Part shown: positions 32,734 through 60,821 of the stretch, piece after piece
How the letters are laid out: the number at the start of each line of letters is the position of its first letter
Numbering within the stretch: the first letter of the stretch is position 1
Source: Anaerolineales bacterium
GTDB taxonomy: Bacteria; Chloroflexota; Anaerolineae; Anaerolineales; DRKV01
Reading direction: 5' to 3'
Length of the DNA: 64,000 bases
Assembly: GCA_034429745.1 (NCBI GenBank)
Contig: DAOUFY010000123.1
Coordinates: 895 to 64,894, forward strand
Position numbers and translations under genes: made by a program
Notes under the pieces: model-generated
Databases searched by the model: none
Told to the model about the DNA's origin: nothing
Seen by the model: only the letters and a program-made list of their open reading frames with translations

Positions 32734-33726
32734 ATGAAACTTCCCATGAAAATCACAATCATTGGTCTAGGAGAACAGGGCATTTCCATCGGCTCTGCCT
32801 TATCCTCAGCTAAAGAGCGATTCTTGCGAATTGGCTATGATGCTGATATTAATCGCCAACACGCAGCCCAACGTGCTCAAGCAATTGATAAATCTGTACT
32901 TAATATCCATCAAGCAGTCCAAGATGCTGATATTATCGCACTTTGCGAATCGTGGGATAAACTCCAACCCACCCTTCAGACGATTGCCTCTAGTGTAAAG
33001 CAAAACAGCGTAATAATTGACACATCTCCGATGAAATGCCGCGTGGCAGAATGGGTGCGGGCTTATTTTCCACCAACTGTTTCATACATCGGTATTTACC
33101 CTGTTGAGCACTTAACCAATGCCTCCCTTTCTCCCAATACAGAAACTTTGTCATTCAACAATCTGCCTATTTATCTTGCCGCTCCAGGTGGAACTTCATC
33201 AGCTGCGCTTGACCTCGTTACACAACTCATCCAAGCTATGGCCGCCCACCCCATTTATATTGATTTATTAGAACTAGACGGCATTTTAGCGAAAACCCAG
33301 CTTCTTCCCCCTCTACTTGCTCAAGCACTGATTCAAACCACCATCAATCAAGGAGGATGGCAAGATGCCCGCAAGCTTTCCTCCCTTCCTTTTGCTTTCA
33401 TTACTAGTGCAATGAATACCCAAACTCCCGAAGCTCTTGTAGCTGCATGGAGTTCCAATCAGGAGAATACACTGCGCGTTCTAGATGACTTGATAGCTGC
33501 CTTGACTTCATTGCGCCAAACACTCGCTGAATTGTCTGAGAATAATCCCTCGCAGATTCAGCACCTCATCTCTGCCAGCAGCCAAGCCCAACAAGCTCAT
33601 CAGCAATGGTGGTCAGAACGATTAAACGAAAACTGGCAAGAAGGTGTCCCTTTGCCAGTCTTAGAAAAGCGCAGCTTTCTCAGCCGTTTCTCAGCTGCTT
33701 TATTTCAAACTAAACGTAAGAATTAA
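32734..33726 (+). CDS. NAD(P)-binding Rossmann protein, prephenate/arogenate dehydrogenase-like
   Basis: N-terminal ITIIGLGEQGISIG dinucleotide motif. I did not recognise the catalytic residues of TyrA. Confidence 0.3.
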   Translation: MKLPMKITIIGLGEQGISIGSALSSAKERFLRIGYDADINRQHAAQRAQAIDKSVLNIHQAVQDADIIALCESWDKLQPTLQTIASSVKQNSVIIDTSPMKCRVAEWVRAYFPPTVSYIGIYPVEHLTNASLSPNTETLSFNNLPIYLAAPGGTSSAALDLVTQLIQAMAAHPIYIDLLELDGILAKTQLLPPLLAQALIQTTINQGGWQDARKLSSLPFAFITSAMNTQTPEALVAAWSSNQENTLRVLDDLIAALTSLRQTLAELSENNPSQIQHLISASSQAQQAHQQWWSERLNENWQEGVPLPVLEKRSFLSRFSAALFQTKRKN

Positions 33727-34062
33727 AATTCCCAAAGCCCCAGCCACCCACCAATACCCAGCATAAGGCTGAGGCACAAACGTTGATGTTCTTACAGCTA
33801 CCGCAAGGCAGGAAAGCACAATCCCAACACCAAAAATCCACCAATTTTTTATCTGATACGTAATTTGGGGCGTCTCTTCCTTTTGCAGTGGCTTTGCACC
33901 ATATTTTTGGGCTTTCTTCTTCTTTGCTAACTGCTGAGGAGATAACTTCTCTTCTTCCGCTTTGCGTATCGTTTTCTTCTTGCGGCCTCGCAATTGAATA
34001 AACCGAAAATAGAAAATGACTACTGCAATGCCAACAATAATTATTCCAGGTTCAATATGCAC
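33700..34062 (-). CDS. Small membrane protein with a lysine-rich loop
   Basis: 120-aa ORF with three hydrophobic helices. No recognisable motif. Confidence 0.4.
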   Translation of the reverse strand: MHIEPGIIIVGIAVVIFYFRFIQLRGRKKKTIRKAEEEKLSPQQLAKKKKAQKYGAKPLQKEETPQITYQIKNWWIFGVGIVLSCLAVAVRTSTFVPQPYAGYWWVAGALGILILTFSLK

Positions 34063-34065
34063 AAT

Positions 34066-34560
34066 CTAACCCTCGCTTTCGTACCCTAAGACCTCAAGCA
34101 CCTTTTTATAAAAAACATCAAGATCTATCGGTAATCCTTCTTCGCCGGGGAAATACCTGCCCCGCGGCGTCCATTCCCCAAAAATCGTCTCTTTCCTTCC
34201 GTCTTCTTTTATTATCTGAGATAAAGAGAACACCTTGCAAAATTTTTTCCATATGAATAGTGTAGGCTTTTGCGGCGGATACAGCAAAGCAACAAAATAA
34301 GCTTCACCGTGCTTCTGAGGAGGCGGTGGTATTATCAAGGCCGTTCTTGCCCCATTAGCGTGCTCGCGTATTTCAAAGCTCATGCCATCGGCAATTCTGC
34401 GCTCTTCGGGCTCCAACCTTTCTCCTACATGATCCCACCAAAATTGCAAAAAGTCAAGCTTATCTTGCTCTAAATAATAAAAAAAACGTTCTGTGTCACT
34501 TCGAAAAGCGCTTGGCAATGCCTTATAACTGAAAATATATTGTTGAGATTGCTTACCCAT
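34066..34560 (-). CDS. Hypothetical protein
   Basis: 164-aa ORF, co-directional and abutting its neighbours. No recognisable motif. Confidence 0.4.
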   Translation of the reverse strand: MGKQSQQYIFSYKALPSAFRSDTERFFYYLEQDKLDFLQFWWDHVGERLEPEERRIADGMSFEIREHANGARTALIIPPPPQKHGEAYFVALLYPPQKPTLFIWKKFCKVFSLSQIIKEDGRKETIFGEWTPRGRYFPGEEGLPIDLDVFYKKVLEVLGYESEG

Positions 34561-35449
34561 ACTGCATCTCCTTAATTACCCGTTTCACAAAACTTCGAAA
34601 AGAAGTTGCCGGCCTTCCTAATAACCAACCCAATACATTGCTGTTTCCACAAAAGCCAAATTGCTCATAATATACAAACATTTTTTTTAGCGTTTCAAGC
34701 GCATATTCTCCCAACCCATTTATACGTGCTTGCTTCTCCCACTCTGCTAAGTCTAACTTTTCGGCTTTTACTTCCCTGCCTAATTCCTCACTCAGCACTT
34801 GTGCAACTTCTATTTGAGTCAAACACTCCGCTCCTGCCAGTTCATAAATCGCATCGCTATGCCTGTCTTCCATCATTACTTTGCTTGCGGCTTCGGCTAC
34901 ATCCAATAAATCTACCATACCCAAACGGGTTGTTGGGGCATATGGCACTCGATAAATACCGTTTTGTGTAATTACTTGCCAATAAGCAAGAATATTTTGC
35001 ATATAAGCAGCCGGCTGTAGTATTGTATAAGACAAACCACTCTCGAATATCTTCTCCTCAACCCGCATCTTTTGCCAATGATGGGGCATGGCTTCAACTT
35101 GCGGGTGCAGTACCGAATGATAGACTAATCGCCAAACATCATTGGCTTTTGCCGCATTCAGAAGCTTCTTTGCTATCGAGACTTCATCAGCACACATGTT
35201 TGGCGGAATATGATAAATAGTTTTCACTCCTTTGCACGCGCGTCTCAGATCTTCTTCTTGGTTTAAATCCCCTAAAACAACTTCATTTACCCCTAAGTCT
35301 TTTAAGTGCTCACCTGCCTGTGCATTGCGCACAAAAGCTCTTACACAAGCTTGTTTTTCCAATAACGCCTTAATAACGGCTCTTCCAGTTTTTCCGCTCG
35401 CTCCTGTAACCAGAATCATATCTTGCTCTGCCTTACAATCATTATTCAT
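34553..35449 (-). CDS. NmrA-like atypical SDR, NAD(P)-binding
   Basis: ILVTGASGKTGRAV glycine motif. The start may instead be the internal ATG at 35419 (MILVTGASG). Confidence 0.7.
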   Translation of the reverse strand: MNNDCKAEQDMILVTGASGKTGRAVIKALLEKQACVRAFVRNAQAGEHLKDLGVNEVVLGDLNQEEDLRRACKGVKTIYHIPPNMCADEVSIAKKLLNAAKANDVWRLVYHSVLHPQVEAMPHHWQKMRVEEKIFESGLSYTILQPAAYMQNILAYWQVITQNGIYRVPYAPTTRLGMVDLLDVAEAASKVMMEDRHSDAIYELAGAECLTQIEVAQVLSEELGREVKAEKLDLAEWEKQARINGLGEYALETLKKMFVYYEQFGFCGNSNVLGWLLGRPATSFRSFVKRVIKEMQYG

Positions 35450-35460
35450 TCAAACAGGCA

Positions 35461-35483
35461 TCCGAAGCCTTTCCAGCTTCGGA
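35461..35483 (-). terminator. Hairpin downstream of the permease gene (possible terminator or attenuator)
   Basis: TCCGAAGC-ctttcca-GCTTCGGA, an 8-bp perfect stem that extends to 11 bp with one G-U pair. On the minus strand it is followed by CUGUUUG. Confidence 0.45.
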
Positions 35484-35521
35484 CGCCTTTATCAATAATA
35501 TAATGAATATCTAAACCCAGA

Positions 35522-36937
35522 TTACTGGTTGAGGACATCCGCCCGCACTTCAGGGGCTTTGAAAACCAAAGTGATTAAGTTCATAATGATGCCTACAACC
35601 GCACCAGTCGCAATGGCCGGCCAACCATTGGGGAACACACCCTGCAGCAATGGAATGGGCAGGAATCCATTGGGGAACCCAATGTTGCCGCCGATGCCTA
35701 TAATGAGAATAGTCGCACCAATGGCTAAGTGCTTGGGATCATAAAGGTTGACCTTCTCTGCCATCATGAGCGCGATACCTTGCATACCAATCACACCAAA
35801 CAGGTAGATGGCTAGACCACCTGATACTGCGGTGGGAATGGAAGCAATAGCTTCAGCTAAAGGTCCTATGAAGCCTAAAATGATGGCAATAACACCGGCC
35901 GTGATGAGAGCGGGCCCAGAGTAGTTGCGGGTGATCACCATGAGCGAGTTGTTCTCACCATAGTTTGTACCTGCGGTTGAGCCAAACAGACCGTTGATGA
36001 AGTCATCCAAGCCATCAAGCATTAGGTTCAAGCCAATATACTGAGCTAAATTATAGCGCGGCTTGCCCAATAAATCAGCTAAGTGATCCACATAAAGGCT
36101 GATCTGATAGAGGTGTGCGGTCGATTCTGGAATGGTAGCAATTGCCATAATACCTACACCCACAATGACAGTTGCCGTCAAGGGATCGCCAAACGAGGGG
36201 AAGTTAATTTGCGGTGCTCGCAGAAAAGCCTCCTTGCCAAACGCAGCAAAATTAACTAATCCTAAAGGAATAGCCACAATGTAACCAATAATAGCGGCTA
36301 AAAGAATAGGCAGCATGCCGATGAAGCCTTTGCCCTGCAAATACACAGAGAGAATGAACGCTGCCAAGAGGGTAACTACCGCAGCAGTCCACCACTTTAA
36401 TTGCATTGCCGGCTCTGTAACCCCACAGCAAGTTCCTGCAGACATTCCCAAAGCTGCTGCGCCTAAACCAATACCAATCGTGCAGGCAACGGGACCAGTT
36501 ACAATCGGGGGCAGTACATAATCTAACGCTTCTTTACCTCCAGAGATACGAATGATTAAGCCTACAATGATGTTGATGATGCCGGTTGCGATAAAACCTG
36601 CCACAACGACTGAAATTACCTCTGGTGGCGCCACTGGAGCATCCGCAGGAACCCCTTTAGCTGCCATAATACCCGCAACCGCCGTGATATAGCTGAAGCT
36701 TGAGCCATAGTATAATGGAATATATTTGCCAATGCTCAGTTTCGCTCCAATCAGTGTTACTACTGTGCCTAAACCTGTAATGGTCAATACCGTGCTTACA
36801 GGGAACTTCATAAGAATAGCGCATAACACTGTAGCCGGGAACATGGTCAAGACGTGCTGCAAACCAAGCAGAACCATCTGCCCAAATGGGGGAGTATCAT
36901 TTGGTAGATAACCCATGACTTTTGTTTCTGTAGCCAT
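35522..36937 (-). CDS. NCS2-family nucleobase (uracil/xanthine-type) permease
   Basis: 471-aa polytopic protein whose glycine-rich TM pattern is typical of NCS2 permeases. It is the last gene of the catabolic operon. Confidence 0.75.
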   Translation of the reverse strand: MATETKVMGYLPNDTPPFGQMVLLGLQHVLTMFPATVLCAILMKFPVSTVLTITGLGTVVTLIGAKLSIGKYIPLYYGSSFSYITAVAGIMAAKGVPADAPVAPPEVISVVVAGFIATGIINIIVGLIIRISGGKEALDYVLPPIVTGPVACTIGIGLGAAALGMSAGTCCGVTEPAMQLKWWTAAVVTLLAAFILSVYLQGKGFIGMLPILLAAIIGYIVAIPLGLVNFAAFGKEAFLRAPQINFPSFGDPLTATVIVGVGIMAIATIPESTAHLYQISLYVDHLADLLGKPRYNLAQYIGLNLMLDGLDDFINGLFGSTAGTNYGENNSLMVITRNYSGPALITAGVIAIILGFIGPLAEAIASIPTAVSGGLAIYLFGVIGMQGIALMMAEKVNLYDPKHLAIGATILIIGIGGNIGFPNGFLPIPLLQGVFPNGWPAIATGAVVGIIMNLITLVFKAPEVRADVLNQ

Positions 36938-37221
36938 ACTAATCCTTCCTTTTCTAAAAAACTTTTAATTTCAGAACACCACTTAATAATAATTTTGATA
37001 CTTGAATAACCTCTCAACCGCGTCGGCATCAGTTTGGGTAATAAACCCTCCTTTCTGCCCCGCTCCTAGGCGGCATGACAATTATTGCAGCTCACCTAGA
37101 AAATACACAGCATTTGCTTTCCTCTTATTTGATACATCACCTCCTTTCACATATTACCCTCTGATCTCTTTCCAGATTCAGATAGTAAAACCAGCTTGAT
37201 TATGTCCACCACAACGCCTAT

Positions 37222-37362
37222 TTACTGCTTAAACAAATAGGCAATAATACCAAGGATCAACAGAGCGGGAACAATATACATAATGACCCGCGCTTCTTGG
37301 GTTTGAAGCAGATTGATATTTTGGCTGCCCTTGGATGCTTTTTCCATTTCCTTATTTGCCAT
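37222..37362 (-). CDS. 46-aa single-TM mini-protein, paralogous to the C-terminal anchor of the adjacent CoxG-like protein
   Basis: Below the ORF-track cutoff. My translation is MANKEMEKASKGSQNINLLQTQEARVIMYIVPALLILGIIAYLFKQ, to be compared with the CoxG tail ...NVLQSQEARVIMYVVPAIIILGILAYLLSNLPK. A GAGGAG SD lies upstream. Confidence 0.45.
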   Translation of the reverse strand: MANKEMEKASKGSQNINLLQTQEARVIMYIVPALLILGIIAYLFKQ

Positions 37363-37489
37363 AACCAACAAAACTCCTCTAAAATTATTAAATTATTTTA
37401 TTTATACAGGTAAAGAAAGACGTCTCCAGTTATACTTTTACTTTCAGCCCTGTATTAAACCAAATTCACTTACCTCTTTTGCCCATATC

Positions 37490-38122
37490 CTATTTTGGCA
37501 AATTCGATAACAAGTAGGCTAAAATACCCAGTATAATAATAGCCGGCACCACATACATGATCACGCGCGCTTCCTGAGATTGCAAAACGTTTTTACCCAC
37601 ATCCTTTGCCACTGCTGCAGCAAATTCAGCTTCTGAAGGGGGTTTATATTCCGCCGCCCGCCCTTCTGCTTTAGCGGCTATTCGCTCTTGCAGGGCTTTA
37701 TCCAACGATTCAAAAGCCTGTCGGATCATGCTCTTTGCCACACTATCTATCATCCGCTGTCCTACACTGGCTAGTGTACCTCCAAGCTGCAGCTCACCTT
37801 CATACTTCATTAAAGTTGTGCCATCAGCTTGCGCAATAAACTTCACATTACCCGAACCTTTTACAAATCCCGGCGCTCCCTTTCCATCTACCGTCAATGT
37901 GCAGCTCTCAGGAGGTACTTCATTGGAAATCAACAATTTCCCATCAAATACACCCGAAACAGGTCCAACCCGTACAAACATTTTGCCTTCATATTCATTT
38001 TTGCCTATTAATGTAAGGCTTTGCGTACCAGGTAAAGCACTTGCTAAGACGTTGGGATCATAAAACATCTCCCAAACCTCTGCTTGCGGACCATTAAACA
38101 CATGTTCACCTTCTAATTTCAT
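37490..38122 (-). CDS. CoxG-like SRPBCC protein with a C-terminal TM anchor
   Basis: N-terminal MKLEGEHVFNGPQAEVWEMFYDPNVLASALPG... follows the CoxG family pattern. The C-terminus is hydrophobic. Confidence 0.75.
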   Translation of the reverse strand: MKLEGEHVFNGPQAEVWEMFYDPNVLASALPGTQSLTLIGKNEYEGKMFVRVGPVSGVFDGKLLISNEVPPESCTLTVDGKGAPGFVKGSGNVKFIAQADGTTLMKYEGELQLGGTLASVGQRMIDSVAKSMIRQAFESLDKALQERIAAKAEGRAAEYKPPSEAEFAAAVAKDVGKNVLQSQEARVIMYVVPAIIILGILAYLLSNLPK

Positions 38123-38161
38123 AATAAAAACCTACCTAATTCTTTTATGTTTATGCATTAA

Positions 38162-40504
38162 TTATTGTTTTTGTTGTACAAGCTGCCATAAACGGCACGG
38201 ATCCAGTGGCGATTCTAATATCTCCACTCCTTCATCCTTCAGCGCATTTTCAACAGCGGAGGCGAATGCCGCCGGCGTTGGAATTGCACCGGCTTCGCCA
38301 ATTCCCTTCGCACCTAATTGGTTCAAGGGAGATGGAGTGGACAAGTGGGCTAATTCCATCTTGGGTGGCATATCCGTTGATACCGGCAGCAAATAATCCA
38401 TCAGTGAAGCATTAAGCAGCTGACCGTTCTCGTCATACACCATCCGTTCATAAAATGAATTGCCAATCCCCATAGATACGCCCCCCATAATCTGACCATC
38501 CAGGATCAGCGGATTGATCACTGTACCGCAATCATGGGCAATAACAAAGCGTTTAATCTGCACTAAGAAAGTCTCCGGATCAACTTCAACAATCATAGCT
38601 ACAGCGCCTTGCCCTGTTGCACCATGCGGCGGTCCATAAAATGCAGTTGCTTCTAAGCCGGGTTCCATATTGGGATCAATCGTGCCGCGCGTTGGGTTCG
38701 CCCGCATTGCCAATTCTCCCAAAGTAACGAATTTGCTAGGTACATCGGCTATACGCACTACACCATCGGCTAATTCCAACTCTTCTACTGGCGCACCCAA
38801 GACGCTGCTGGCTATTTGCAGCGCTTTATTCCGTACTTTGGTTGCGGCGGAATATATTGCATTGCCTGCCACTGTTGCTCCGCGGCTGGCAAAAGTCCCC
38901 GCTCCCCAATGGAAATGTCCTGTATCACCTGTAATAACGCGTACATCCCTTACGCTTACACCTAGCTGTTCCGCTACAAGTTGCGCAAAGGAAGTAAAAT
39001 GCCCTTGTCCTTGGGTACTGATGCCAGTTACTACAGTAACTTTGCCACCGCCATCTACATTAACCCGCGCTCCTTCATACGGACCAACGGCAGTCCCTTC
39101 TACAAAGCATACTACCCCTATGCCTACCTTTTTGCCTTCTGCTCTCAAACGCGGTTGTTCCTCTTTGATAAATTTTTCGTAGCCAATAATCTCTACCGCT
39201 TTCTTAAGCGTTGCAGGATAGTTGCCACTATCTAACACGTTCTCAACAAAATCTTGCCCAATTATCCCTGTCTTATAAGGGAATTGATTAGGCTGAATCA
39301 TGTTCTTTAAGCGCAGCTCAACCGGGTCTATGTTCAATTCTCTTGCGGCAATATCTATCATCCTTTCCATAACATAGACGCCATACATCCTGCCCGCACC
39401 GCGTACCGGGGTTACGACCATTTTATTTGTAAAGACCATAATGACCCGCGTGTAGAAATTAGGAATGTCATACGAGCCGGTGGTGTGGGTTTGCGTGTTT
39501 AGCGGTACCGTCATTCCGTACGGGTCATAAGCTCCCGTATTATGATAAAATACGTCCTTCAAGCCCAAAATGCGCCCATCTTTCGTCAGGGCAATTTCTA
39601 CATCATGAATTTGGTCACGCTCCGACGTCGTCGCTAAGAAATTTTCTCGTCGATCCTCTACCCATTTAATAGGACGTTTGAGCTTCATGGAGATCCACGG
39701 TAAAAGCACATCATCTGCCTGAGATGTCATAATCTTAGGCCCAAAACCGCCTCCCACAAAGGGGGTAATCAACCGTACTTGCGAGGCAGCCAAGCCTAAA
39801 TTAGCGGCGATAGTATTGCGCAGAGGGATAGGTGCTTGACAATTGCTCCAGCAAGTCATGGTTTGTGTCTTTTCATCCCAATCCACGATAAAGCCGCGGT
39901 TTTCCATAGCACCCGATGCGCCTCGGTCAATATAAAAGCGCCGCTTTATCACGACATCTGCTTTAGCTGCAGCCTCTGCATAATTTCCATGTTCTTGCTG
40001 CACATCAGCAGCAAGGTTTGTGCCTAAATCATCATGCACCAACGGCGAATTAGGCTCTAAAGCCTTTTCAAGATCCGTTACCGCCGGTAATGGCTCTAAA
40101 TCTACAATTATGTCTGCCAAGGCGTCCTCAGCAATATAGCGGCTTTCTGCAATAACCACCGCTAAAGGTTCGCCGGAAAAGCGCACCTTATCCTTAGCAA
40201 TCGGTGGCAATGGTCTAGCATTGAACTTCGCTCCCGCTATGGCTAAAGGTGGCGGCACTTGCAGAGGACCTACATGCCAGTAGTCTCCAAAATCCTCTGC
40301 TGTATATACAGCTACAACCCCAGGACGCTGTTTAGCTGCCGAAGTATCAATGGATTTAATTCGCGCATGCGCATAATCACTGCGCAAAAAAGCCGCATGC
40401 AGCATGCCCGGCAGATGAATATCATCTAGAAACAAAGCACTGCCGCTTAATAATTGCGCATCTTCGTTTCGGGTTATTCGTTGTCCAATTATTTTGTACG
40501 ACAT
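38162..40504 (-). CDS. Molybdopterin-binding large subunit of a xanthine dehydrogenase-family hydroxylase
   Basis: 780 aa with PVRGAGR and C-terminal KGIGEAGAIP (catalytic Glu region). It lacks the VAYRCSFR loop of true CO dehydrogenases. Confidence 0.85.
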   Translation of the reverse strand: MSYKIIGQRITRNEDAQLLSGSALFLDDIHLPGMLHAAFLRSDYAHARIKSIDTSAAKQRPGVVAVYTAEDFGDYWHVGPLQVPPPLAIAGAKFNARPLPPIAKDKVRFSGEPLAVVIAESRYIAEDALADIIVDLEPLPAVTDLEKALEPNSPLVHDDLGTNLAADVQQEHGNYAEAAAKADVVIKRRFYIDRGASGAMENRGFIVDWDEKTQTMTCWSNCQAPIPLRNTIAANLGLAASQVRLITPFVGGGFGPKIMTSQADDVLLPWISMKLKRPIKWVEDRRENFLATTSERDQIHDVEIALTKDGRILGLKDVFYHNTGAYDPYGMTVPLNTQTHTTGSYDIPNFYTRVIMVFTNKMVVTPVRGAGRMYGVYVMERMIDIAARELNIDPVELRLKNMIQPNQFPYKTGIIGQDFVENVLDSGNYPATLKKAVEIIGYEKFIKEEQPRLRAEGKKVGIGVVCFVEGTAVGPYEGARVNVDGGGKVTVVTGISTQGQGHFTSFAQLVAEQLGVSVRDVRVITGDTGHFHWGAGTFASRGATVAGNAIYSAATKVRNKALQIASSVLGAPVEELELADGVVRIADVPSKFVTLGELAMRANPTRGTIDPNMEPGLEATAFYGPPHGATGQGAVAMIVEVDPETFLVQIKRFVIAHDCGTVINPLILDGQIMGGVSMGIGNSFYERMVYDENGQLLNASLMDYLLPVSTDMPPKMELAHLSTPSPLNQLGAKGIGEAGAIPTPAAFASAVENALKDEGVEILESPLDPCRLWQLVQQKQ

Positions 40505-40518
40505 AGGATTACCTCACA

Positions 40519-41007
40519 CTATGCTTTCTTAGCCGCAGCTAATTTCTGAGCAGCCAATTCCACTGAATCAATGATGAACTCATAGCCGGTGCAGCGGCAA
40601 ATATTGCCGCTAATTGCTTCTCTAATCTCTTCCCGCGAGGGATGAGGATTTTCTTCAAGGAAAGCAGTTACCGTCATGAGAAAACCGGGTGTGCAAAAAC
40701 CACATTGCAAACCATGCTTTTCACGAAAAGCTTCCTGAATTGTGTGCAGATGATCCTTGTCGCCTAAGCTTTCGACAGTACGCACTTCATGATTATTTGC
40801 CTGTACTGCAAACATTAAACAAGAACGCACTGGCTTTCCATCAAAAAGAACAGTACAAGCTCCGCACACGCCGTGTTCACATCCAACGTGCGTTCCTGTC
40901 AATCCAAGCTCATGACGGATGAAATCGCTTAATAACATCCGCGCCTCTACATTGCGTTCATAAATCGTGCCATTTACATTGACTTTAACAGGGTAAAGCT
41001 TACTCAT
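40519..41007 (-). CDS. [2Fe-2S]-binding small subunit of the Mo-hydroxylase
   Basis: Cys motifs CEHGVCGACTV and CGFCTPG ... CRCTGY. Start at ATG 41007 behind AAGGAGG. Confidence 0.9.
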   Translation of the reverse strand: MSKLYPVKVNVNGTIYERNVEARMLLSDFIRHELGLTGTHVGCEHGVCGACTVLFDGKPVRSCLMFAVQANNHEVRTVESLGDKDHLHTIQEAFREKHGLQCGFCTPGFLMTVTAFLEENPHPSREEIREAISGNICRCTGYEFIIDSVELAAQKLAAAKKA

Positions 41008-41008
41008 C

Positions 41009-41887
41009 TTAACCTCCTTGAGCAGCACGCGCAAAGGCTACTTTCAGCGTATGTTGGACCAGCACTTTGGCTAAATGCCGCCGATATTCAGCTGTCGCGT
41101 GAATATCTGATCCCGGATCGATCTCTTTGGCAGCTTGTTCCGCTGCAGCTCGTATCCCTTCTTCTGATGGCTTTTGCCCAATTAAAAGCTGTGCTGCTTG
41201 TGGCACTGCTAGGGGTGTTTCTCCTACAGCAGAAAGCACCATCCTTGCAGCTTTGCAAGCACCCTTTTCATCCAACGTTACTACCGTAGAACATCCGACT
41301 AACGACGTTGCACCTTTCTGGCGGGCTACATGCTGATAGCACGTGCCTGTACGCGGCGGTAAAGGCGGTATAGCTATCTCCACCAGCATTTCGCCCGGGT
41401 CCACTGCCGGCGTGAAAGGTCCCATAAAAAAGTCTTCTGCAGCTACCCAGCGTTCTGCGCTCTTGCTTTTCACCAACAACTTAGCTTGCAGAGCCAAAAC
41501 TAAACCCGGAGCTTGCCCAGCCGGGTCTGCATGAGCAACTGCCCCTCCAAACGTACCCCGATTCCGTATCTGTGGATGGGCTACGTGGGGCATTGCCTCA
41601 TGAATCAAAGGTGCCTTCTTCTCAATTAAAGGGTCATGCTCAACAGTGCTTGAGCGTGTCATCGTCCCTATCAACAACCCGCCATCTGCAGCAGGTTTAA
41701 TATAAAATAATTCGCTGATATTGTTTAAGTCAACTAGCGCAGCTGGTTGCGCCATCCGGAAATTCATTGCCGCCACTAGGCTTTGACCTCCGGCCAGCAC
41801 TTTACCGTCATATCCAAGTTGCGCCAGCGTATCCAAAGCCTCTTCAAGTGAAGTCGGTGCATAATAATCAAATGGAGCTGGCTTCAT
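41009..41887 (-). CDS. FAD-binding medium subunit of the Mo-hydroxylase
   Basis: AGGQSL motif and the CoxM/XdhB-like pattern FDYYAPTSLEEAL. Start at ATG 41887 behind AAGGAGG. Confidence 0.85.
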   Translation of the reverse strand: MKPAPFDYYAPTSLEEALDTLAQLGYDGKVLAGGQSLVAAMNFRMAQPAALVDLNNISELFYIKPAADGGLLIGTMTRSSTVEHDPLIEKKAPLIHEAMPHVAHPQIRNRGTFGGAVAHADPAGQAPGLVLALQAKLLVKSKSAERWVAAEDFFMGPFTPAVDPGEMLVEIAIPPLPPRTGTCYQHVARQKGATSLVGCSTVVTLDEKGACKAARMVLSAVGETPLAVPQAAQLLIGQKPSEEGIRAAAEQAAKEIDPGSDIHATAEYRRHLAKVLVQHTLKVAFARAAQGG

Positions 41888-41895
41888 AGTTCGAT

Positions 41896-41947
41896 GCCTC
41901 CTTAACTTCCTCAAGGAGGCTTAGCAAGACCATCTCTAAGCCTCCTT
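41896..41947 (-). promoter_or_regulatory. Intercistronic RNA element: SD-like / anti-SD / SD triplet able to form two alternative hairpins
   Basis: On the mRNA, AAGGAGGCUUAG (comp. 41936-41947) pairs perfectly (12 bp) with CUAAGCCUCCUU (comp. 41913-41924). The same CCUCCUU can instead pair (8 bp) with the true SD AAGGAGGC (comp. 41896-41903). Confidence 0.5.
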
Positions 41948-41962
41948 TGATAACACTCGTTC

Positions 41963-43636
41963 TTATTTTCCTTCTTTGAAAGCTACGAACCTTCCCCACA
42001 TAGATTCTGCTTCCATAGCCTTCTGCAGGTAGCAGCCAATATAATAACGCCCACTCTTGGCATGAGCTATATCACCCGCTAAATTCTCAGCATGAACAAT
42101 GCGTTTGGGGAATAGATTCAAGTGCATATCCTGATAATATTCATCCAATGGATACATCTCATCCCAATCCTTGCCAAAATCTCGTTTTAGTTTTTCATTG
42201 GCTTCAGCAAAGGTCTTAGGATGCCAAATACGCATAATAGTATTCATAGGATGATCCGCACTCACGGCATCTACACCAATCCACTTGATTTGCATATCTG
42301 CAGCCCATTTTGAGAAATCTGGTGAAGGACCTGGATGTTTAACCATGTATCTAAACTCATCCGATTCTGGACTGCACCAGCCATATTTGTTCCAACCCGT
42401 TTTAATGACGAGAATATCTCCTTTGCGAATATCAACGACATCATGTATCATCTTTGGAGTATAAACACTCGAATCGCTTACAAGATGCGAAATATCTGCA
42501 ATAACACCTGGTCCTACCCATTCATTCAATGGCACCTGTCCAATTGTACGCCCGGCCGGGTAGAAGTGTTTTTCACCATCCATATGAGTGGCAAGGTGAA
42601 TGCTGGCATTGCAGATAGAGCCATTGCGCCCCATTCCAAAGTATTGACCACCCACTCGTTTAGTGTATGTTACACTCAAAGGAACATAGTTCAGCCATTG
42701 TGGAGTTTGCACGCTGAAGGGAACCGTCATATCCAGCATTTCAGCAGCTTCCATCTCCTTCATGAACTCCGCTTCACTCATCCACTCCGGCGCTTGATAA
42801 GCTACTACCCTTGCCCAAGCGGTCTCTACTTCCATAAAAGGAATCGGCATAATAGCAATCCAAGCTCGTTGATTCTTCAGCTTGTCTATTTCGCCTACTA
42901 TCGACTCTACAAAGACCAAGTGAGCCTTGGGCATTGTGATATGCGTCATCTCGTAGTACTCATCCTGCGGGAACATTTCGTCCCAACTCTTGCCGTATTC
43001 CTTCTTTAGCTTTTCCTCAGCGCGCTTAAAATGATTCTCATGCATACGGCGGATAGGCGTATTCATGGGGTGCTCTGCACAACCGCAGTCAACACCAATA
43101 ACCTTCAGCTTCATATCCAAAGCCCACTTATAAAAATCCGGCGATGGACCAGGATGGCGTACTAAGAAACCAAACTCTTTCGATTCCACTCCCCCTTGGG
43201 CATGCTCATTGAATACATCCGGCTGATCAAATGAATAGCGGTGATAGCCAGTATTGATAATGAGAATATCGCCTTTTTCAACTTTGGCTTTTTTCATAAT
43301 CATTTCCGGCGTGTACAAACTGTAATCCGAAACCATATCTGAAATATCTACAATCCCGCCGGGACCGCATAAATCCTTAAGAGGAATATCGCTGATAGCG
43401 CGCCCACCTGAATGAAAGGCGCGTTCACCAACTAAGTGCGTTCCAACCGTATTGCTCCAGTTAAGAATCTGCCCATTCGCGCCTTGTCCACCGCCATAAG
43501 CGCCTGTTACCCTTTTGAAGAAATGGATCTCCAGTGCTTTTTCCCCAGGCCAAGGCGGAGTGAAAATACTGCAGTCCTGGGTCAGATCGTACATTTTGGC
43601 TTCAGCCATCATTTTAATAAACTTCTCGCGATCCAT
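41963..43636 (-). CDS. Tandem cyclase-family (kynurenine-formamidase-like) hydrolase
   Basis: Two homologous halves (VRHPGPSPDFYKWALDMKLKVIGVDCGCAEHPMNT and VKHPGPSPDFSKWAADMQIKWIGVDAVSADHPMNT). The metal motif HLATHMDGEKH is present only in the second half. Start at ATG 43636 behind GGAGG. Confidence 0.65.
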   Translation of the reverse strand: MDREKFIKMMAEAKMYDLTQDCSIFTPPWPGEKALEIHFFKRVTGAYGGGQGANGQILNWSNTVGTHLVGERAFHSGGRAISDIPLKDLCGPGGIVDISDMVSDYSLYTPEMIMKKAKVEKGDILIINTGYHRYSFDQPDVFNEHAQGGVESKEFGFLVRHPGPSPDFYKWALDMKLKVIGVDCGCAEHPMNTPIRRMHENHFKRAEEKLKKEYGKSWDEMFPQDEYYEMTHITMPKAHLVFVESIVGEIDKLKNQRAWIAIMPIPFMEVETAWARVVAYQAPEWMSEAEFMKEMEAAEMLDMTVPFSVQTPQWLNYVPLSVTYTKRVGGQYFGMGRNGSICNASIHLATHMDGEKHFYPAGRTIGQVPLNEWVGPGVIADISHLVSDSSVYTPKMIHDVVDIRKGDILVIKTGWNKYGWCSPESDEFRYMVKHPGPSPDFSKWAADMQIKWIGVDAVSADHPMNTIMRIWHPKTFAEANEKLKRDFGKDWDEMYPLDEYYQDMHLNLFPKRIVHAENLAGDIAHAKSGRYYIGCYLQKAMEAESMWGRFVAFKEGK

Positions 43637-43671
43637 AATAATTAAACCTCCAAATCGCAACTGCTAAAAAA

Positions 43672-44916
43672 TTATATGTTATATTTCTCGGCAAACGCAA
43701 CCAGTGCATCTTCGAAGATGTTGGCTGGCGGGCTGACTACACCGGCTCCAACTTGACCCACTCCGGGGTCTTTATGAGCTACACCAGTGTTAACCCGTGG
43801 CAGCAAGTTCTTTTCAATAACCTTGCGAATATCAATTCCAGTCGGTGTGCCGCGAAAATCCAAGAATGGAATAGTGAAGAACTTATGCTCAGCATAAGTA
43901 ATTTCATACATGTCTAAAGTGGTATTAATCGCATCCTTTGGTGTCCCGCTGATAAAGGTTACAATCGCTGGCGCGGTTGCCATTGCGAAACCACCGATTC
44001 CTGCTGTTTCCGTGATGGTGCTGTCCCCAATATCCGGGTTTGCATCCTTTTCAGTAAAACCGGGGAAGTACAATGCTTTTACCTTGCCCGCCGGACCAGT
44101 AAACCATTGATCTCCCAAACCGCTAACTCGAATGCCAAAATCAGTACCGTTGCGTGCCATGACTGTTACAATCGTACTGCCTTCAATATTATGTCCTGCA
44201 TCGCACATTGTCTTGCAGGAAGCCATGACCGGGTTTAATACGCTCAAAGCGTTATCACCCAAGAACTTTATCACCTCACCGGCTGTTTTAGTATCTTTTG
44301 CAGTTCTCGCGATACCCGGCGCCAGGGCAACGGTGAACTGGATCGAGGCTGCGTCCAAACGGTTATGGCCATCATCCCCCATGTGCAATGCCTTCCCAAG
44401 CAAAGCGCGCATATCTACACCACCCACATCTTCGATGGCGGACTTTACGGTCGGACCAAGAACACTTTCCATCCAACGCACTTTCTCAATTACATCATCA
44501 CTATAAGCACCCATGCGCATTACTTTGCCGCGCCCCTCATTGAGGTTGGAATATGCGCGATTGCCATGTGTCTTATTCTCAATAATATAAACCAGCATAG
44601 AAGGAGAAATCACACCTGCCATAGGTCCTACCGCAGCATGATGATGGCAAGGAGCAAATTCCACTTTACCCTTCTTAATGAGGGCTTCAGCTTCATCCCA
44701 ATTCTTTGCCATTCCTTCAAAAATCATCGCCCCCACGATATTCCCTTTCATTGGTCCGGCCATCCGTTCCCAAGTAATGGGGGGACCAGCATGCAAGAAC
44801 AAGTTCTCCTTCATTCCCGGTATCACTTCAATGGCTTTGCCCATCCCAATAAGTACTGGATGAGCATCCATCATCCGTGTTACAGTCTCGGTATTAGCCT
44901 TTTCAATATCAACCAT
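43672..44916 (-). CDS. DUF1116 protein (YlbE-like)
   Basis: Motifs LHAGPPITWERMAGPMKG, CHHHAAVGPMAG, NLNEGRGKVMRMGAY, FGIRVSGLGDQWFT and GDSTITETAGIGG match my recollection of E. coli YlbE. It directly follows fdrA. Start at ATG 44916 behind GGAGG. Confidence 0.8.
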   Translation of the reverse strand: MVDIEKANTETVTRMMDAHPVLIGMGKAIEVIPGMKENLFLHAGPPITWERMAGPMKGNIVGAMIFEGMAKNWDEAEALIKKGKVEFAPCHHHAAVGPMAGVISPSMLVYIIENKTHGNRAYSNLNEGRGKVMRMGAYSDDVIEKVRWMESVLGPTVKSAIEDVGGVDMRALLGKALHMGDDGHNRLDAASIQFTVALAPGIARTAKDTKTAGEVIKFLGDNALSVLNPVMASCKTMCDAGHNIEGSTIVTVMARNGTDFGIRVSGLGDQWFTGPAGKVKALYFPGFTEKDANPDIGDSTITETAGIGGFAMATAPAIVTFISGTPKDAINTTLDMYEITYAEHKFFTIPFLDFRGTPTGIDIRKVIEKNLLPRVNTGVAHKDPGVGQVGAGVVSPPANIFEDALVAFAEKYNI

Positions 44917-44934
44917 AATAACCTCCAACAAAGA

Positions 44935-46671
44935 TCACTTTTGCTGCTTCATGCGCTGCAGAATCGAAGCCAATTTCTCATTGCCGCCCGCCGGAGGTCT
45001 CCAATCCACATGCATGACCTCAACCTTTTGGGCAATCAAGTTTTGAGCGAATGACTCTAAACCAACGTTAATGGCAACGACCGGTTTTTTAATCACATCC
45101 AAATCTACCGGCTTGAAGGAAAAAGCCTCTTGAGTCTCTTCTTGGTTAAGCGCTTGCACTAATGCTCCCGCATAGCGCACAACCACCTCATTATCTACAT
45201 CAACCCAAGCTCCCGCCTTTTTCAACTGCGCTATTTGGTTGTTGATGTTTTGTGGATCCTCATCTGTACCTGTAACCACTACCGCTACTTCAAGGTAACG
45301 TCCAGCTTTTTCAGCCAGCGCTTTAGCCTCAGCAATCGCTGGCGCCAGTTCGCTGGCAGGATCAGGATGTGAACCATACCCAATGACAACATCCAGCATA
45401 ATTACTGCGACAGAGGGATCAGCCGCCTCTTCCATCAGCCGTCGAATGCGCAGTTCATTATCCATCATGGGGTGCAAACGACCAACGGTGAACTCATCTT
45501 CTCCCAAATCCACAATACAATGCTCCTGGCTGACCAATGAATTGGGCAGCTTGTCCTCCTTGTTTATTGGGGCGTTGGCTAATACCCGCGGCAAATAATC
45601 CTTTAGAATGTGCTGTGCTTCATAGGCTAAAGTTCCGCCAGAAAACAGACCGCGGAAATACTTTTGCCCTGCAGCGAATTTACTGACAGGGAGCTCCACT
45701 TTGCGCTGCTGTTTGCCGCCGGCGCCCGATTTCACTAAATCCACTGCTATCCGCGCCGCATCATCTAAACCGCTAGCAAAGATCAAGTTATCCATCTCTC
45801 TGCTGCGAGAAACATACCCCACAAAACTGATCACTACCGGCTTGCCAGCTGCCTTTGCCTTTTCCAATACTTGCTGAGCTACTTTAGGTGCAGGCGGTTT
45901 TGAAACCAAAACTATCACTTTCGTATCCGCATCGCGGCTCAAGGCATCCAGACCCATCAAAAACGTTTTCGCCCCCACTTTTTCTGATAAATCGCGTCCG
46001 CCGGTGCCGATACCAAAAGTCATACCGCTGCCTAATTGATGAATGCGCGACGACACCTGTTGCAGCCCAGTCCCTGCCGCTGCCACTACGCCGATTGGAC
46101 CCAACCTCACTTTATTGGCAAATCCTAACCCTATACCGCGCACTACAGCTGTACCGCAATCAGGACCCATTACCAGCAAGCCTTTCTGGGCTGCCATCTC
46201 TTTAAGAGATATTTCTTCTTCTACCGGCACATTATCGCTGAAAAGAAACACATGCTTTCCAAGCGACAGCGCATCGCGGCTAACGCCCGCTGCATACCGT
46301 CCTGCAACTGAGACCAACACCCACTGAGATTCGGGAAGCGCTTTCGCGGCTGATTCAACACTTTGTGGCCGATACTCTTGTTCAATGGTTGAGCGGCGCT
46401 GTGTAAGCAGCTCATCCAGACGAGCCAACGCTTGGTCTGCAGCGGTCTCCGTATCGGCACGTACCACTACAACCAAATCATCCGCTTTTGCACTTTCCAC
46501 TTCAGGGGATAATAAATCAATTCGGGCAAGGAGTTCCTTATTCGTATCCGTGCCCATCACAACACCCGCGTCTTGCACGCCAGGCAAATCAGAAAAGGTG
46601 CGCTGAAGCTGCATAAGAAACGCAGAATCATAATACGCACCTCTGCGGATAACCGCCTTTATTGATGACAT
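44935..46671 (-). CDS. fdrA: FdrA-family protein (succinyl-CoA-synthetase-alpha-like)
   Basis: 578 aa with a CoA-ligase-like core (GPDCGTA, IGVVAAAGTGLQ). It pairs with the DUF1116 gene as in E. coli fdrA-ylbE. Confidence 0.75.
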   Translation of the reverse strand: MSSIKAVIRRGAYYDSAFLMQLQRTFSDLPGVQDAGVVMGTDTNKELLARIDLLSPEVESAKADDLVVVVRADTETAADQALARLDELLTQRRSTIEQEYRPQSVESAAKALPESQWVLVSVAGRYAAGVSRDALSLGKHVFLFSDNVPVEEEISLKEMAAQKGLLVMGPDCGTAVVRGIGLGFANKVRLGPIGVVAAAGTGLQQVSSRIHQLGSGMTFGIGTGGRDLSEKVGAKTFLMGLDALSRDADTKVIVLVSKPPAPKVAQQVLEKAKAAGKPVVISFVGYVSRSREMDNLIFASGLDDAARIAVDLVKSGAGGKQQRKVELPVSKFAAGQKYFRGLFSGGTLAYEAQHILKDYLPRVLANAPINKEDKLPNSLVSQEHCIVDLGEDEFTVGRLHPMMDNELRIRRLMEEAADPSVAVIMLDVVIGYGSHPDPASELAPAIAEAKALAEKAGRYLEVAVVVTGTDEDPQNINNQIAQLKKAGAWVDVDNEVVVRYAGALVQALNQEETQEAFSFKPVDLDVIKKPVVAINVGLESFAQNLIAQKVEVMHVDWRPPAGGNEKLASILQRMKQQK

Positions 46672-47004
46672 TGAAACCTCCTGCTATAAAAACAATCAAA
46701 AGGGGTTTGTAACAAAAATAACCTATACTCGCCCCTTTTTATAAGGGCATTATAACACAACTTTTTAAAATTGGGAAGCGTTTTCAAGAAATAGTCTTCT
46801 TCAATTTCATAATACCCGTAAAAAGGATTCGTTATCTATGTTCCTAGATTTCCTTCGGCTATTACCTTATTCACAAGCATTCCATACACCCCCACTGGCT
46901 AAATTAATTATCGAGATCTCCTTCTGTCTGAACAGGCAAGAAAACTGCACATAATTTGCCGGCAAGACCATAATCAAAGCTGTGAAGGTATTTTATGCTT
47001 CGTT

Positions 47005-49113: not shown

Positions 49114-49630
49114 TGAGACCTCCTTTGCCAAGATTAATAAATCTTCCTAACAAACTACAATAGTTCAAATGATCATAATTTACCTCTATCTTCTGTTCCT
49201 TGTGCACTCTTGGTAAACAAATCGCTTTCCAGCGTAAATTAGCATCCTTTCTTCCTTAACTTAATTTATCATCAATAGTGAACATGATCATTTTAGGGGG
49301 CTATCAAACAAACTATATTTTTCCTAGGCTTCATTTATTAAAAAAGCAAAATTTATAGACACCAACTCTACCATTTTCATTATAGCACCGGAATTTCGCA
49401 TTGAGACATAAATCTCAATCTCTATGCTGTATCTTGCGTAACTTTTTTTAGAGAAGCGGGTTTTCTTTGTTAGGAAAAAGATTCTCACCTGCGAGTTGCA
49501 TTAGACAAAACGCTTCCCTTTAACCCAATCGGTTTTCAATTTAGTACCGTTATTGGCGAGCCTTAGCTTGCATAAGCAAAGGTGAGATTTTTTCTATCTA
49601 ACTTCACGAAAAAAGGAGATCGTATTCAAG

Positions 49631-58325: not shown

Positions 58326-59090
58326 ATGGATACCTTTATTTTTGAACAAGAATCTATTTATGGCATATTCCTCAATGCCCCTTCAGAACAAGACAAAGAA
58401 ACATGGCTAGCGTATGAAAATTATCTTTCGGAACAAGAAAAGCTATTTCTAGCAGGGCTGCGTTTCCCCAAGCGGCAGCGTGATTGGCTGTTAGGTCGCT
58501 TCACGGCTAAAAAACTGCTGCTTGAATTCCCGCACCTTGCGTCAAGCTGCCCCATTCACCAACTGACAATTGCTAATGACCCTCAAGGAGCCCCTTGCAT
58601 CCTTCTACCAGACCAAACCGTAATGAATGGTTGTTTATCCATCAGCCACAGCAGTGGTGCGGCTTTCTGTGCTTGGACTCCCCTTACAACTCAACACATT
58701 GGAGCAGATATTGAACTCATTGCCCCTCACCCTCAATACTTTATTGAAGATTATTTTACACCATTTGAAATCGCCCAATGTGCACAAGCCCCTGAACCAT
58801 TGCGCGCAGATCTTGTAACCGCAATTTGGAGCGCAAAAGAAGCTGTCCTCAAAGCTCTGCGGCAAGGCTTGAAATGGGACACACGTCAAGTTGAAATCAA
58901 TCTCTCTGCAATAAATCTCGAGCAAACGCAGTTCGGCATTTGGTACCCGGCAGAGGTTGCACAGCCAAAAAGCAAAGAAAAAACTTGGCAGCTTTGGATT
59001 CAACGCTCCCAAGTCTATATACTCACGTTAGCTTGCTTAAAAGAAACCGCCGTTATTGAACCAGAGGGGAATACGGCCGGTAGGCATTAA
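58326..59090 (+). CDS. Sfp-type 4'-phosphopantetheinyl transferase
   Basis: Motifs GADIELI and WSAKEAVLKAL (WxxKEAxxK). Confidence 0.8.
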   Translation: MDTFIFEQESIYGIFLNAPSEQDKETWLAYENYLSEQEKLFLAGLRFPKRQRDWLLGRFTAKKLLLEFPHLASSCPIHQLTIANDPQGAPCILLPDQTVMNGCLSISHSSGAAFCAWTPLTTQHIGADIELIAPHPQYFIEDYFTPFEIAQCAQAPEPLRADLVTAIWSAKEAVLKALRQGLKWDTRQVEINLSAINLEQTQFGIWYPAEVAQPKSKEKTWQLWIQRSQVYILTLACLKETAVIEPEGNTAGRH

Positions 59091-60690: not shown

Positions 60691-60753
60691 CACTTCTTTA
60701 AACCCTCTTGTCATAAAAACGTTGCACATTAAAAAATAAATTCTGCCAAGCAA

Positions 60754-60782
60754 TTGCTCACTTGCCAAAAATAGATTATAAT
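60754..60782 (+). promoter_or_regulatory. Promoter TTGCTC-17 nt-TATAAT for the Zn-ribbon/nuclease genes
   Basis: Read directly. The -10 box sits within the palindrome ATTATAAT, so the same box could also serve the divergent pfaD-like gene. Confidence 0.5.
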
Positions 60783-60821
60783 CGGCTTCACTATTGGAAT
60801 AAATAAAAAAGGACAACCATC

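Follow-up and report, generated by a model that had tools for sequence, protein, structure and literature searches.

The 64,000-nt stretch of DNA analysed here (contig DAOUFY010000123.1 of an Anaerolineales bacterium; "the window" below, to which all coordinates refer) contains a run of minus-strand genes for homologues of the E. coli proteins AllF (FdrA) and AllG (DUF1116), a tandem cyclase-family metal hydrolase, a three-subunit molybdenum (Mo) hydroxylase, CoxG and an NCS2 permease. We are inclined to believe that this cluster encodes a phosphorolytic variant of oxidative pyrimidine degradation, in which the ureide is kept as carbamoyl phosphate and is not lost as urea. Every step of the pathway was assigned from family membership and gene neighbourhood.

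In the classical oxidative route uracil is converted to barbiturate, then to ureidomalonate, and finally to urea and malonate. Oxalurate and its CH2-homologue ureidomalonate both belong to the N-acylureas. In the proposed variant, the UraA-like permease would import uracil or a close analogue, e.g., thymine; in some lineages uracil would be made from uridine or cytosine. The Mo hydroxylase would oxidise C6 of uracil to give barbiturate, with CoxG tethering the enzyme to the membrane and the quinone pool. The cyclase, through its sole intact (C-terminal) site, would open the barbiturate lactam to ureidomalonate (N-carbamoylmalonamate), which the AllF/AllG-like enzyme would split with phosphate into carbamoyl phosphate and malonamate. 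Carbamoyl phosphate could then yield ATP by carbamate kinase or enter arginine or pyrimidine synthesis. Malonamate would be converted by an amidase to malonate, to be decarboxylated or activated as a CoA ester; genes for these last steps are found in related clusters, outside the window.

A more comprehensive proposal is possible rather than probable: a widespread anaerobic pathway for the pyrimidine ring, in which the Mo hydroxylase would be a uracil/thymine dehydrogenase, the cyclase-fold enzyme a non-homologous barbiturase, and the AllFG(H)-type enzyme a ureidomalonate phosphorylase (giving ATP via carbamate kinase), while the fused dead copy of the cyclase may stand in for AllH. Uracil/thymine dehydrogenase is a long-standing case of an enzyme that is not known to have an assigned sequence.

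Genes linked to related modules

Judging by their family matches, the genes linked to related modules point to malonate on the product side and to pyrimidines on the substrate side. Malonate decarboxylase genes adjoin AllF-AllG-cyclase in four loci (L119, L164, L091 and L101), which represent three lineages because L119 and L164 are 90% identical at MdcA. In L119/L164 the equivalog scores exceed the cut-offs for mdcA (933 vs 789), mdcC (105 vs 84), mdcD (377 vs 228) and mdcE (285 vs 237); L091 has an MdcA Pfam match with an E-value of 5.8e-274 together with the beta subunit of a Na+-translocating decarboxylase, and in L101 MdcA lies directly downstream of AllG. Amidases of the AS family occur in 7 loci, and CN-hydrolases nearest to formamidase/aliphatic amidase are recurrent, as are family III CoA-transferases with best matches to the succinate-glutarate and mesaconate types. 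Uridine phosphorylase is above the equivalog cut-off of 280 in L101 and L117 (294 and 297), and cytosine-deaminase-like amidohydrolases are present in 7 loci, the latter as a best match only (277 vs the cut-off of 438). Carbamate kinase is linked in L096, L098, L099 and L104 (L096 scores 448.8 vs the cut-off of 358), and this linkage implies carbamoyl phosphate.

Some neighbouring decarboxylases differ from the biotin-independent Mdc set: an mmdA-like carboxyltransferase in L089/L090 (10046-11446, minus strand) and the above Na+-translocating decarboxylase beta subunit in L091 (10027-11145, plus strand). Such loci hint that (methyl)malonyl-CoA is decarboxylated downstream with conservation of energy, a step that could also take a thymine-derived product.

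The closest single-domain cyclase family belongs to Ignavibacteria, with the gene order AllH-AllF-AllG-cyclase-FAD-FeS-Mo. The Mo subunit there is about 31% identical to that of the window, and its best match is XdhA (528 vs 780). A metagenome scan with three single-domain cyclase queries gave 80 loci, of which 50 are 9 kb or longer and were used for the counts below.

AllG: 40/50 metagenome loci, directly before the cyclase
AllF: 39/50
Mo subunit: 34/50
AllH: 26/50
CN-hydrolase: 12/50
u241: 11/50
CoA-transferase: 10/50
NCS2: 6/50

AllF-AllG-cyclase is an ancient linked unit, usually with a Mo hydroxylase and often with AllH. The first-pass annotation, made from the letters of the window, noted that the partners DUF2877 (AllH) and carbamate kinase are missing and regarded them as replaced by the hydroxylase and the cyclase. 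Their absence from the window stands. The replacement does not, because AllH, AllF, AllG, the cyclase and the Mo hydroxylase co-occur in Ignavibacteria and in many metagenome loci, four loci adding carbamate kinase. The absence is a trait of the Anaerolineae version, or of the 64-kb window.

Conservation in Anaerolineae

A large protein collection contains 913 homologues of the tandem cyclase, of which the best 120 share 83-91% identity with it and carry the names Anaerolinea, Anaerolineae or Chloroflexi. A scan of one genome per species gave 309 tandem-cyclase relatives (the best 80 are 79-89% identical), so that the tandem form is present in at least 309 species-level Anaerolineae genomes. 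The gene order is kept in dozens of them, and Anaerolinea thermophila UNI-1 has the same order including the NmrA-like gene and both genes without family assignment that follow it. The presence counts below cover only Anaerolineae loci with enough flanking sequence, and the identity is the median to the window protein.

AllG-like, directly before the cyclase: 74/76 loci, 71%
AllF-like: 50/56 loci, 64%
Mo large subunit: 52/54 loci (46 of the window's type), 65%
CoxG: 46/51 loci, 60%
NmrA-like: 38/48 loci, 52%
NCS2 permease: 25/48 loci, 71%

With a median identity of 83.5%, the tandem cyclase is the slowest-evolving member of the cluster. The synteny counts in Anaerolineae and in the metagenome loci rule out a chance juxtaposition of the genes.

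Two layouts were observed. Type A (the window, Anaerolinea, Bellilinea) is u241-AllF-AllG-cyclase-FAD-FeS-Mo-CoxG-NCS2-NmrA-u164-u120, and the window has this layout minus u241. Type B is family III CoA-transferase-AllF-CN-hydrolase-AllG-cyclase-NmrA-(DinB)-FAD-FeS-Mo-CoxG followed by a Bmp/PnrA-type ABC transporter, a system that takes the place of the NCS2 permease. The protein u241 of the relatives has no match in Pfam, NCBIfam or the PDB; its candidate assignment as an acyl-CoA synthetase was rejected, since the match to 4u5y/4nxy, a chain of 194 aa annotated as "Acyl-CoA synthetase", had a non-significant E-value of 0.21. A DDE transposase interrupts u241 in the type strain A. thermophila UNI-1 (L001, AP012029, 4877-6529). 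In the window, where u241 is absent, a WD40 Ser/Thr kinase gene occupies the spot upstream of AllF.

One Anaerolineae-type cluster (L028, JAIWHF010000044.1; cyclase 85% identical) lies on a contig of a metagenome-assembled genome named "Methanosarcinales archaeon", and this contig is probably mis-binned.

The gene run in the window

The minus strand carries an unbroken co-directional run of 12 open reading frames (ORFs) from 46671 to 33700. The genes were identified with Pfam and NCBIfam and are given in the order of transcription; all of them, and the site in the first line, are on the minus strand.

46749..46777, minus: promoter-like site, by consensus match only, with the sequence TTCCCA-17-TGnTATAAT; it precedes the start of the AllF-like gene by about 78 bp
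44935..46671, minus: AllF/FdrA-like protein, 578 aa (NCBIfam NF004760, 545.9 vs cut-off 433; Pfam Ligase_CoA, 110 bits, and CoA_binding)
43672..44931, minus: AllG/DUF1116-like protein, 419 aa (PF06545, 309.6 bits)
41963..43660, minus: tandem cyclase-family metal hydrolase, likely true start 43636 (557 aa); two PF04199 stretches
41009..41914, minus: medium (FAD-binding) subunit of the Mo hydroxylase, which probably starts at 41887 (FAD_binding_5, 157.8 bits; CO_deh_flav_C, 81.3 bits)
40519..41034, minus: small (2x[2Fe-2S]) subunit of the Mo hydroxylase, which probably starts at 41007 (Fer2_2, 111.8 bits; Fer2)
38162..40504, minus: molybdopterin large subunit, 780 aa, CoxL/Qor-like clade (three Pfam matches to Mo-cofactor domains)
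37490..38122, minus: CoxG (SRPBCC) with a C-terminal transmembrane anchor (PF06240, 90.2 bits; hydrophobic C-terminus in the translation)
37222..37362, minus: 46-aa ORF, a separate partial copy of CoxG that consists of its anchor (amino acid and DNA similarity to the CoxG tail)
35522..36937, minus: NCS2 permease, UraA-like (PF00860, 175.2 bits)
34553..35449, minus: NmrA-like atypical short-chain dehydrogenase/reductase, 298 aa (PF05368, 124.6 bits)
34066..34560, minus: 164-aa protein (u164), no Pfam or NCBIfam match
33700..34062, minus: 120-aa predicted small membrane protein (u120), last gene of the run, no significant family match

The nine co-directional genes described previously are thus all present as ORFs in the reported order; the run extends past the permease, where it had been taken to end, through the NmrA-like gene and u164/u120 to 33700. 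From AllF to CoxG every intergenic gap is at most about 75 nt (3 nt between AllF and AllG). The gaps before the 46-aa ORF and the permease are 127 nt and 284 nt, and the u164 start overlaps the NmrA-like stop by 8 nt. The site 5' of AllF is the top-scoring minus-strand match in a promoter scan; the promoter/terminator scan overall showed no enrichment (28 sites vs 21.3 +/- 3.8 in shuffles). An Rfam scan of 33000-50000 returned nothing relevant, so no riboswitch was found in the 284-bp and 127-bp gaps. Co-transcription is predicted only from the tight spacing and conserved order of the genes and from the promoter-like site before AllF.

The window contains no u241, CN-hydrolase, CoA-transferase, DinB, Bmp, AllH or carbamate kinase gene.

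Properties of the encoded proteins

AllF-like and AllG-like proteins. The AllF-like protein shares 39% identity with E. coli AllF along its whole length and combines a CoA-binding domain like that of the succinyl-CoA synthetase alpha subunit with a CoA-ligase domain. Its residues 104-290 align to SucD 56-241, and the alignment stops short of the SucD phosphohistidine loop. This, together with the lack of an ATP-grasp partner, fits acyl-phosphate chemistry without a nucleotide. The AllG-like protein is 46% identical to E. coli AllG and matches the PDB entry 3clq at E = 8e-135. By analogy with E. coli, we propose that the AllF-like protein is the large subunit of an acylurea phosphorylase (carbamoyltransferase) and that the AllG-like protein would be its partner subunit. 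In a neighbour-joining tree, the AllG proteins linked to cyclases cluster together relative to a single E. coli outgroup; their monophyly cannot be claimed because the canonical AllG is represented by one sequence.

The E. coli allFGHK operon encodes the oxamate carbamoyltransferase AllF-AllG-AllH and the carbamate kinase AllK (PMC11326118). AllFGH catalyses the reaction oxalurate + Pi <-> oxamate + carbamoyl phosphate (Kim & Kim 2024, PMC11326118), and all three allFGH genes are needed for wild-type oxamate formation, allFG alone giving about 7% (PMC11326118). Neither E. coli AllH nor L061 AllH had a tblastn match in the 64-kb window (E up to 1 and 0.01), and AllK had none there either. The candidate of a hidden AllH among the u241, u164, u120 and DinB families was rejected after negative hhalign comparisons with AllH.

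Tandem cyclase. The two halves of the protein are 44% identical to each other. The metal ligands of the C-half (H355/H359/D361/H365/H513/E525) match the HxGTHxDxPxH motif seen in structures of the cyclase family, and none of the six varies among 75 sequences. The equivalent positions of the N-half are T71/H75/V77/A81/H240/E252, so the PF04199 ligand set H, H, D, H, H, E is broken. The degenerate half is equally conserved: mean identity to the window protein is 83% for the N-half and 85% for the C-half. We read the sequence as that of a pseudo-dimer, in which one domain would hold the active site and the other is dead yet under constraint. Among 1.84 billion cluster representatives, practically all full-length tandem forms fall into a single 50% cluster; the lone exception, at 26% identity, is a tandem unrelated to them. 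Relatives with a single domain (about 260-275 aa) can be matched to either half at 37-54% identity, and their motifs are intact.

A Foldseek search with the AlphaFold2 (AF2) model found only cyclase-family hydrolases, isatin hydrolase and kynurenine formamidases; the model is mediocre (predicted local distance difference test score, pLDDT, 64.8; low near both motif regions) and was used solely to confirm the fold. The arylformamidase equivalog TIGR03035 is not reached (51.4 vs the cut-off of 223). The C-half has in common with KynB and isatin hydrolase the PF04199 fold and the site H-x3-H-x-D-x3-H ... H ... E. The window cyclase differs from them in being a tandem fusion whose N-copy lacks three of the six ligands, in having about 60 extra residues per domain (the HPMNT segment included), and in that cyclases of its type follow AllG (74/76 Anaerolineae loci). 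We propose that the tandem cyclase is a ring-opening amidohydrolase and would be a functional analogue of barbiturase.

A second, single-domain cyclase with an intact motif stands beside the tandem-cyclase cluster in L037, L043, L078 (a divergent second set), L045, L046, L065 and L071; in some of such loci it comes with its own u241 and a different Mo hydroxylase. In L162 (8007-10674) single-domain and tandem cyclase genes are adjacent, directly after AllF-AllG.

Mo hydroxylase. The nearest structures to the Mo subunit are 8uem (M. smegmatis CoxL, 514 bits), 1t3q (QorL, 472), 1n5w (O. carboxidovorans CoxL, 449) and 7dqx (Kdh, 431), so it is about as far from CoxL as from quinoline oxidoreductase and Kdh. 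It retains the catalytic Glu. The active-site loop PVRGAG gives an ungapped alignment to AYRGVG of QorL and lacks the copper-binding cysteine of AYRCSFR in CoxL. Among the curated models of CO dehydrogenase (CODH), group 5 is the best (831.5 vs 950), and another gives 560.9 vs 991; the xanthine dehydrogenase (XDH) models XdhA, PucD and XdhB give 427.8 vs 780, 312.7 vs 784 and 247.6 vs 850. CO dehydrogenase was rejected for the missing copper loop and the scores below the cut-offs, and xanthine dehydrogenase for scores far under the XdhA/PucD/XdhB cut-offs. We conclude from these comparisons that the enzyme is probably an N-heterocycle-type hydroxylase, neither a CO nor a xanthine dehydrogenase. 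It has the three-subunit make-up and the catalytic Glu in common with the CoxL/Qor clade (CoxLMS-CoxG, quinoline 2-oxidoreductase, 6-hydroxypseudooxynicotine dehydrogenase), as well as the CoxG accessory protein; it differs from this clade in lacking the AYxCSFR copper loop of CODH, in scoring under all curated cut-offs, and in its module-specific genomic context.

CoxG and its anchor copy. In view of previous knowledge of CoxG, the anchor of the window CoxG suggests electron delivery to the membrane quinone pool. The 46-aa ORF is 75% identical in amino acids to the CoxG C-terminus over 28 residues, and the corresponding DNA repeat (37232-37305 / 37509-37582) has 74 nt at 74% identity. An equivalent ORF of 37 aa is found at 9447-9560 in L003, the closest relative, and is nearly identical to the tail of the L003 CoxG. 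In both the window and L003 each anchor copy is closer to the CoxG tail of its own genome than to the copy of the other genome, and gene conversion or repeated duplication is suggested for this reason.

Permease and the last three genes. The best NCBIfam match of the permease is uracil permease (206 vs the cut-off of 477), xanthine permease giving 127 bits. In the alignment to UraA (5xls/3qe7), the SSF motif and the residues that coordinate uracil (E241, H245 and E290) are retained. The structure nearest to the NmrA-like protein is E. coli YtfG (PDB 2zcu, 91 bits), and in related loci its gene is often directly after the cyclase. Just 6 homologues were found for u164, which has the same position in 16/48 related loci; its AF2 model (pLDDT 78) gave no significant fold match. 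Homologues of u120 hold the same position in type A clusters.

Discussion

We believe that the core of the earlier suggestion, an uncharacterised N-heterocycle operon combining uptake, Mo hydroxylation, ring opening and FdrA/DUF1116 cleavage, is supported. It was also correct in that no characterised route could be assigned: no cluster protein reaches the NCBIfam equivalog cut-off of a characterised enzyme. Among the substrates considered at that time (a purine, pyrimidine or pyridine), the comparative context favours a pyrimidine; among the modes of cleavage (CoA- or phosphate-dependent), it favours phosphate.

Several points weigh against the pyrimidine route. AllH, carbamate kinase, amidase, CoA-transferase and malonate decarboxylase genes are absent from the 64-kb window. 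E. coli AllFG without AllH reaches about 7% of the wild-type oxamate production (PMC11326118), and the window and most tandem-cyclase loci are without AllH. The links to malonate decarboxylase, uridine phosphorylase and carbamate kinase come from single-domain-cyclase clusters (35-61% identical) and not from the tandem-cyclase Anaerolineae. Since L162 and several Anaerolineae loci have cyclases of both kinds, the single-domain and tandem forms may differ in substrate or step. Two clades of Mo subunits, about 30% identical, attach to the module, and the set used for comparison of the Mo subunit contained no verified uracil dehydrogenase sequence. The conserved NmrA-like gene has no place in the proposed pathway. 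Finally, the family names Bmp and PucR are purine-flavoured.

Three other explanations should be considered. The AllF/AllG-like proteins may be a true oxamate carbamoyltransferase, with the Mo enzyme and the cyclase making oxalurate from a five-membered ureide; for example, hydantoin/imidazolone would give parabanate, opened by the isatin-hydrolase-like cyclase, and oxamate would pass through oxalate to oxalyl-CoA. Oxalurate/oxamate is the sole proven AllFGH substrate pair, isatin hydrolase (a structural relative of the cyclase) opens a five-membered alpha-keto-lactam, and the NmrA-like dehydrogenase could oxidise ureidoglycolate. However, allB/C/D/E and oxalyl-CoA decarboxylase were seen in none of about 160 loci, and the decarboxylase linked in three lineages is malonate decarboxylase, which is unable to use oxalate. 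The family III oxalate and formyl-CoA transferases do score 276 and 265 bits against the cluster CoA-transferase, but its best matches are the succinate-glutarate and mesaconate types. The window AllG-like and AllF-like proteins are only 46% and 39% identical to those of E. coli, and the uridine phosphorylase and UraA-like permease links would be left unexplained. We consider this C2 route unlikely. A purine route appears slightly less likely still: the Mo enzyme would make xanthine or an oxopurine, the cyclase would open it to 4-ureidoimidazole-5-carboxylate, and the AllFG-like enzyme would phosphorolyse the ureido group to carbamoyl phosphate. In clostridial purine fermentation a Mn-dependent enzyme does open xanthine hydrolytically; purine catabolism typically involves NCS2 and Bmp/PnrA-type transporters and PucR-type regulators, and L161 has an 8-oxoguanine-deaminase-like gene. 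Yet the permease favours the uracil over the xanthine permease model and has the ligands for uracil, the scores of the Mo subunit are far under the XDH cut-offs, the links to malonate decarboxylase and uridine phosphorylase do not agree with purine breakdown, and downstream imidazole or formiminoglycine genes were not seen in the loci.

The lowest probability is assigned to a CoA-dependent reading, in which the AllF/AllG-like proteins are an acyl-CoA synthetase or acyl-transfer enzyme acting on a ring-cleavage acid, no carbamoyl phosphate is formed, and the Mo enzyme might use a CoA thioester like the furoyl-CoA and 4-hydroxybenzoyl-CoA enzymes. It would agree with the CoA_binding and Ligase_CoA domains of the AllF-like protein, with the CoA-transferase III, AMP-forming ligase and thiolase/DUF35 pair beside some clusters, and with the 510 bits of the Ignavibacteria-type Mo subunit against 4-hydroxybenzoyl-CoA reductase. 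The ligase and thiolase genes are, however, not kept between Ignavibacteria loci, and the only biochemistry of the family is a CoA-independent transcarbamylation. The early end of the SucD alignment, the lack of an ATP-grasp or nucleotide-binding partner, and the carbamate kinase linkage also speak against it. All three explanations are possible ones that fit the neighbour genes less well than the pyrimidine route.

The proposed pyrimidine route resembles two known systems. With the oxidative pyrimidine pathway of Rhodococcus erythropolis (uracil/thymine dehydrogenase, barbiturase and ureidomalonase) it would have in common the substrate, the first two intermediates and the malonate end product, and the first enzyme is likewise a Mo/FAD/Fe-S hydroxylase. 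The difference is that ring opening would be performed by a PF04199 metal hydrolase and not by a barbiturase of the cyanuric-acid-hydrolase fold, and that phosphorolysis to carbamoyl phosphate and malonamate would replace hydrolysis to urea and malonate, which would save energy and require no urease. No cluster protein belongs to the barbiturase/cyanuric-acid-hydrolase family by Pfam or NCBIfam, so the functions of barbiturase and ureidomalonase would come from non-homologous enzymes. With E. coli AllFGH the window has in common adjacent AllF and AllG homologues in the same order and, as proposed, the phosphorolysis of an N-acylurea. Related clusters also have the AllH and carbamate kinase of the AllFGHK system, whereas the window has neither. 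The allantoin genes of the E. coli all locus (allB/C/D/E) are absent from the window, which has a hydroxylase, a cyclase and a nucleobase transporter instead; and where AllFGH acts on an oxalyl (C2) group, the enzymes linked to related modules point to a malonyl (C3) one.

A literature search on AllFGH/fdrA, DUF1116, oxidative pyrimidine breakdown and malonamate found no description of the cluster or the pathway. The component families are all known; the combination and the proposed chemistry are new. If the proposal is true, this is a fourth bacterial pyrimidine degradation beside the reductive, Rut and classical oxidative ones, and the sole one to conserve energy at ureide cleavage. The AllFGH transcarbamylase family would gain a second substrate class, very many proteins annotated as "cyclase family" and "xanthine dehydrogenase family" would receive functions, and there would be candidate genes for uracil dehydrogenase. 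Since Anaerolineae and Ignavibacteria are abundant in digesters, sediments and the subsurface, the pathway would also matter for the turnover of nucleic acids in anoxic ecosystems. Cultivated strains (A. thermophila UNI-1, Bellilinea caldifistulae) make a direct test of the hypothesis possible.

Flanking genes

The flanks of the run are unrelated to it. On one side are genes for cysteinyl-tRNA synthetase, a SpoU methylase and an M50 peptidase, and an opposite-strand prephenate-dehydrogenase-like gene; u120 converges on an unrelated plus-strand gene. On the other side are the WD40 Ser/Thr kinase and a megasynthase of the polyketide synthase (PKS)/polyunsaturated fatty acid (PUFA) type.

The kinase gene (47005-49131, minus strand) encodes a Ser/Thr protein kinase joined to a WD40 propeller of seven blades, whose 'VRLWRAADGELLRTLEGHT' units are highly repetitive, and sits between the two clusters. 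The long antisense ORFs over the WD40 repeats are probably artefacts of repeat composition. The megasynthase (49631-58204, plus strand; 2857 aa) has the domain order KS-AT-ACPx3-KR-DH (ketosynthase, acyltransferase, three acyl carrier proteins, ketoreductase, dehydratase) and is accompanied by a phosphopantetheinyl transferase and a PfaD-like enoyl reductase (58326-59090, plus strand, and 59053-60816, minus strand). By appearance, this group looks like a PUFA-synthase/PKS-like cluster that adjoins the catabolic one.

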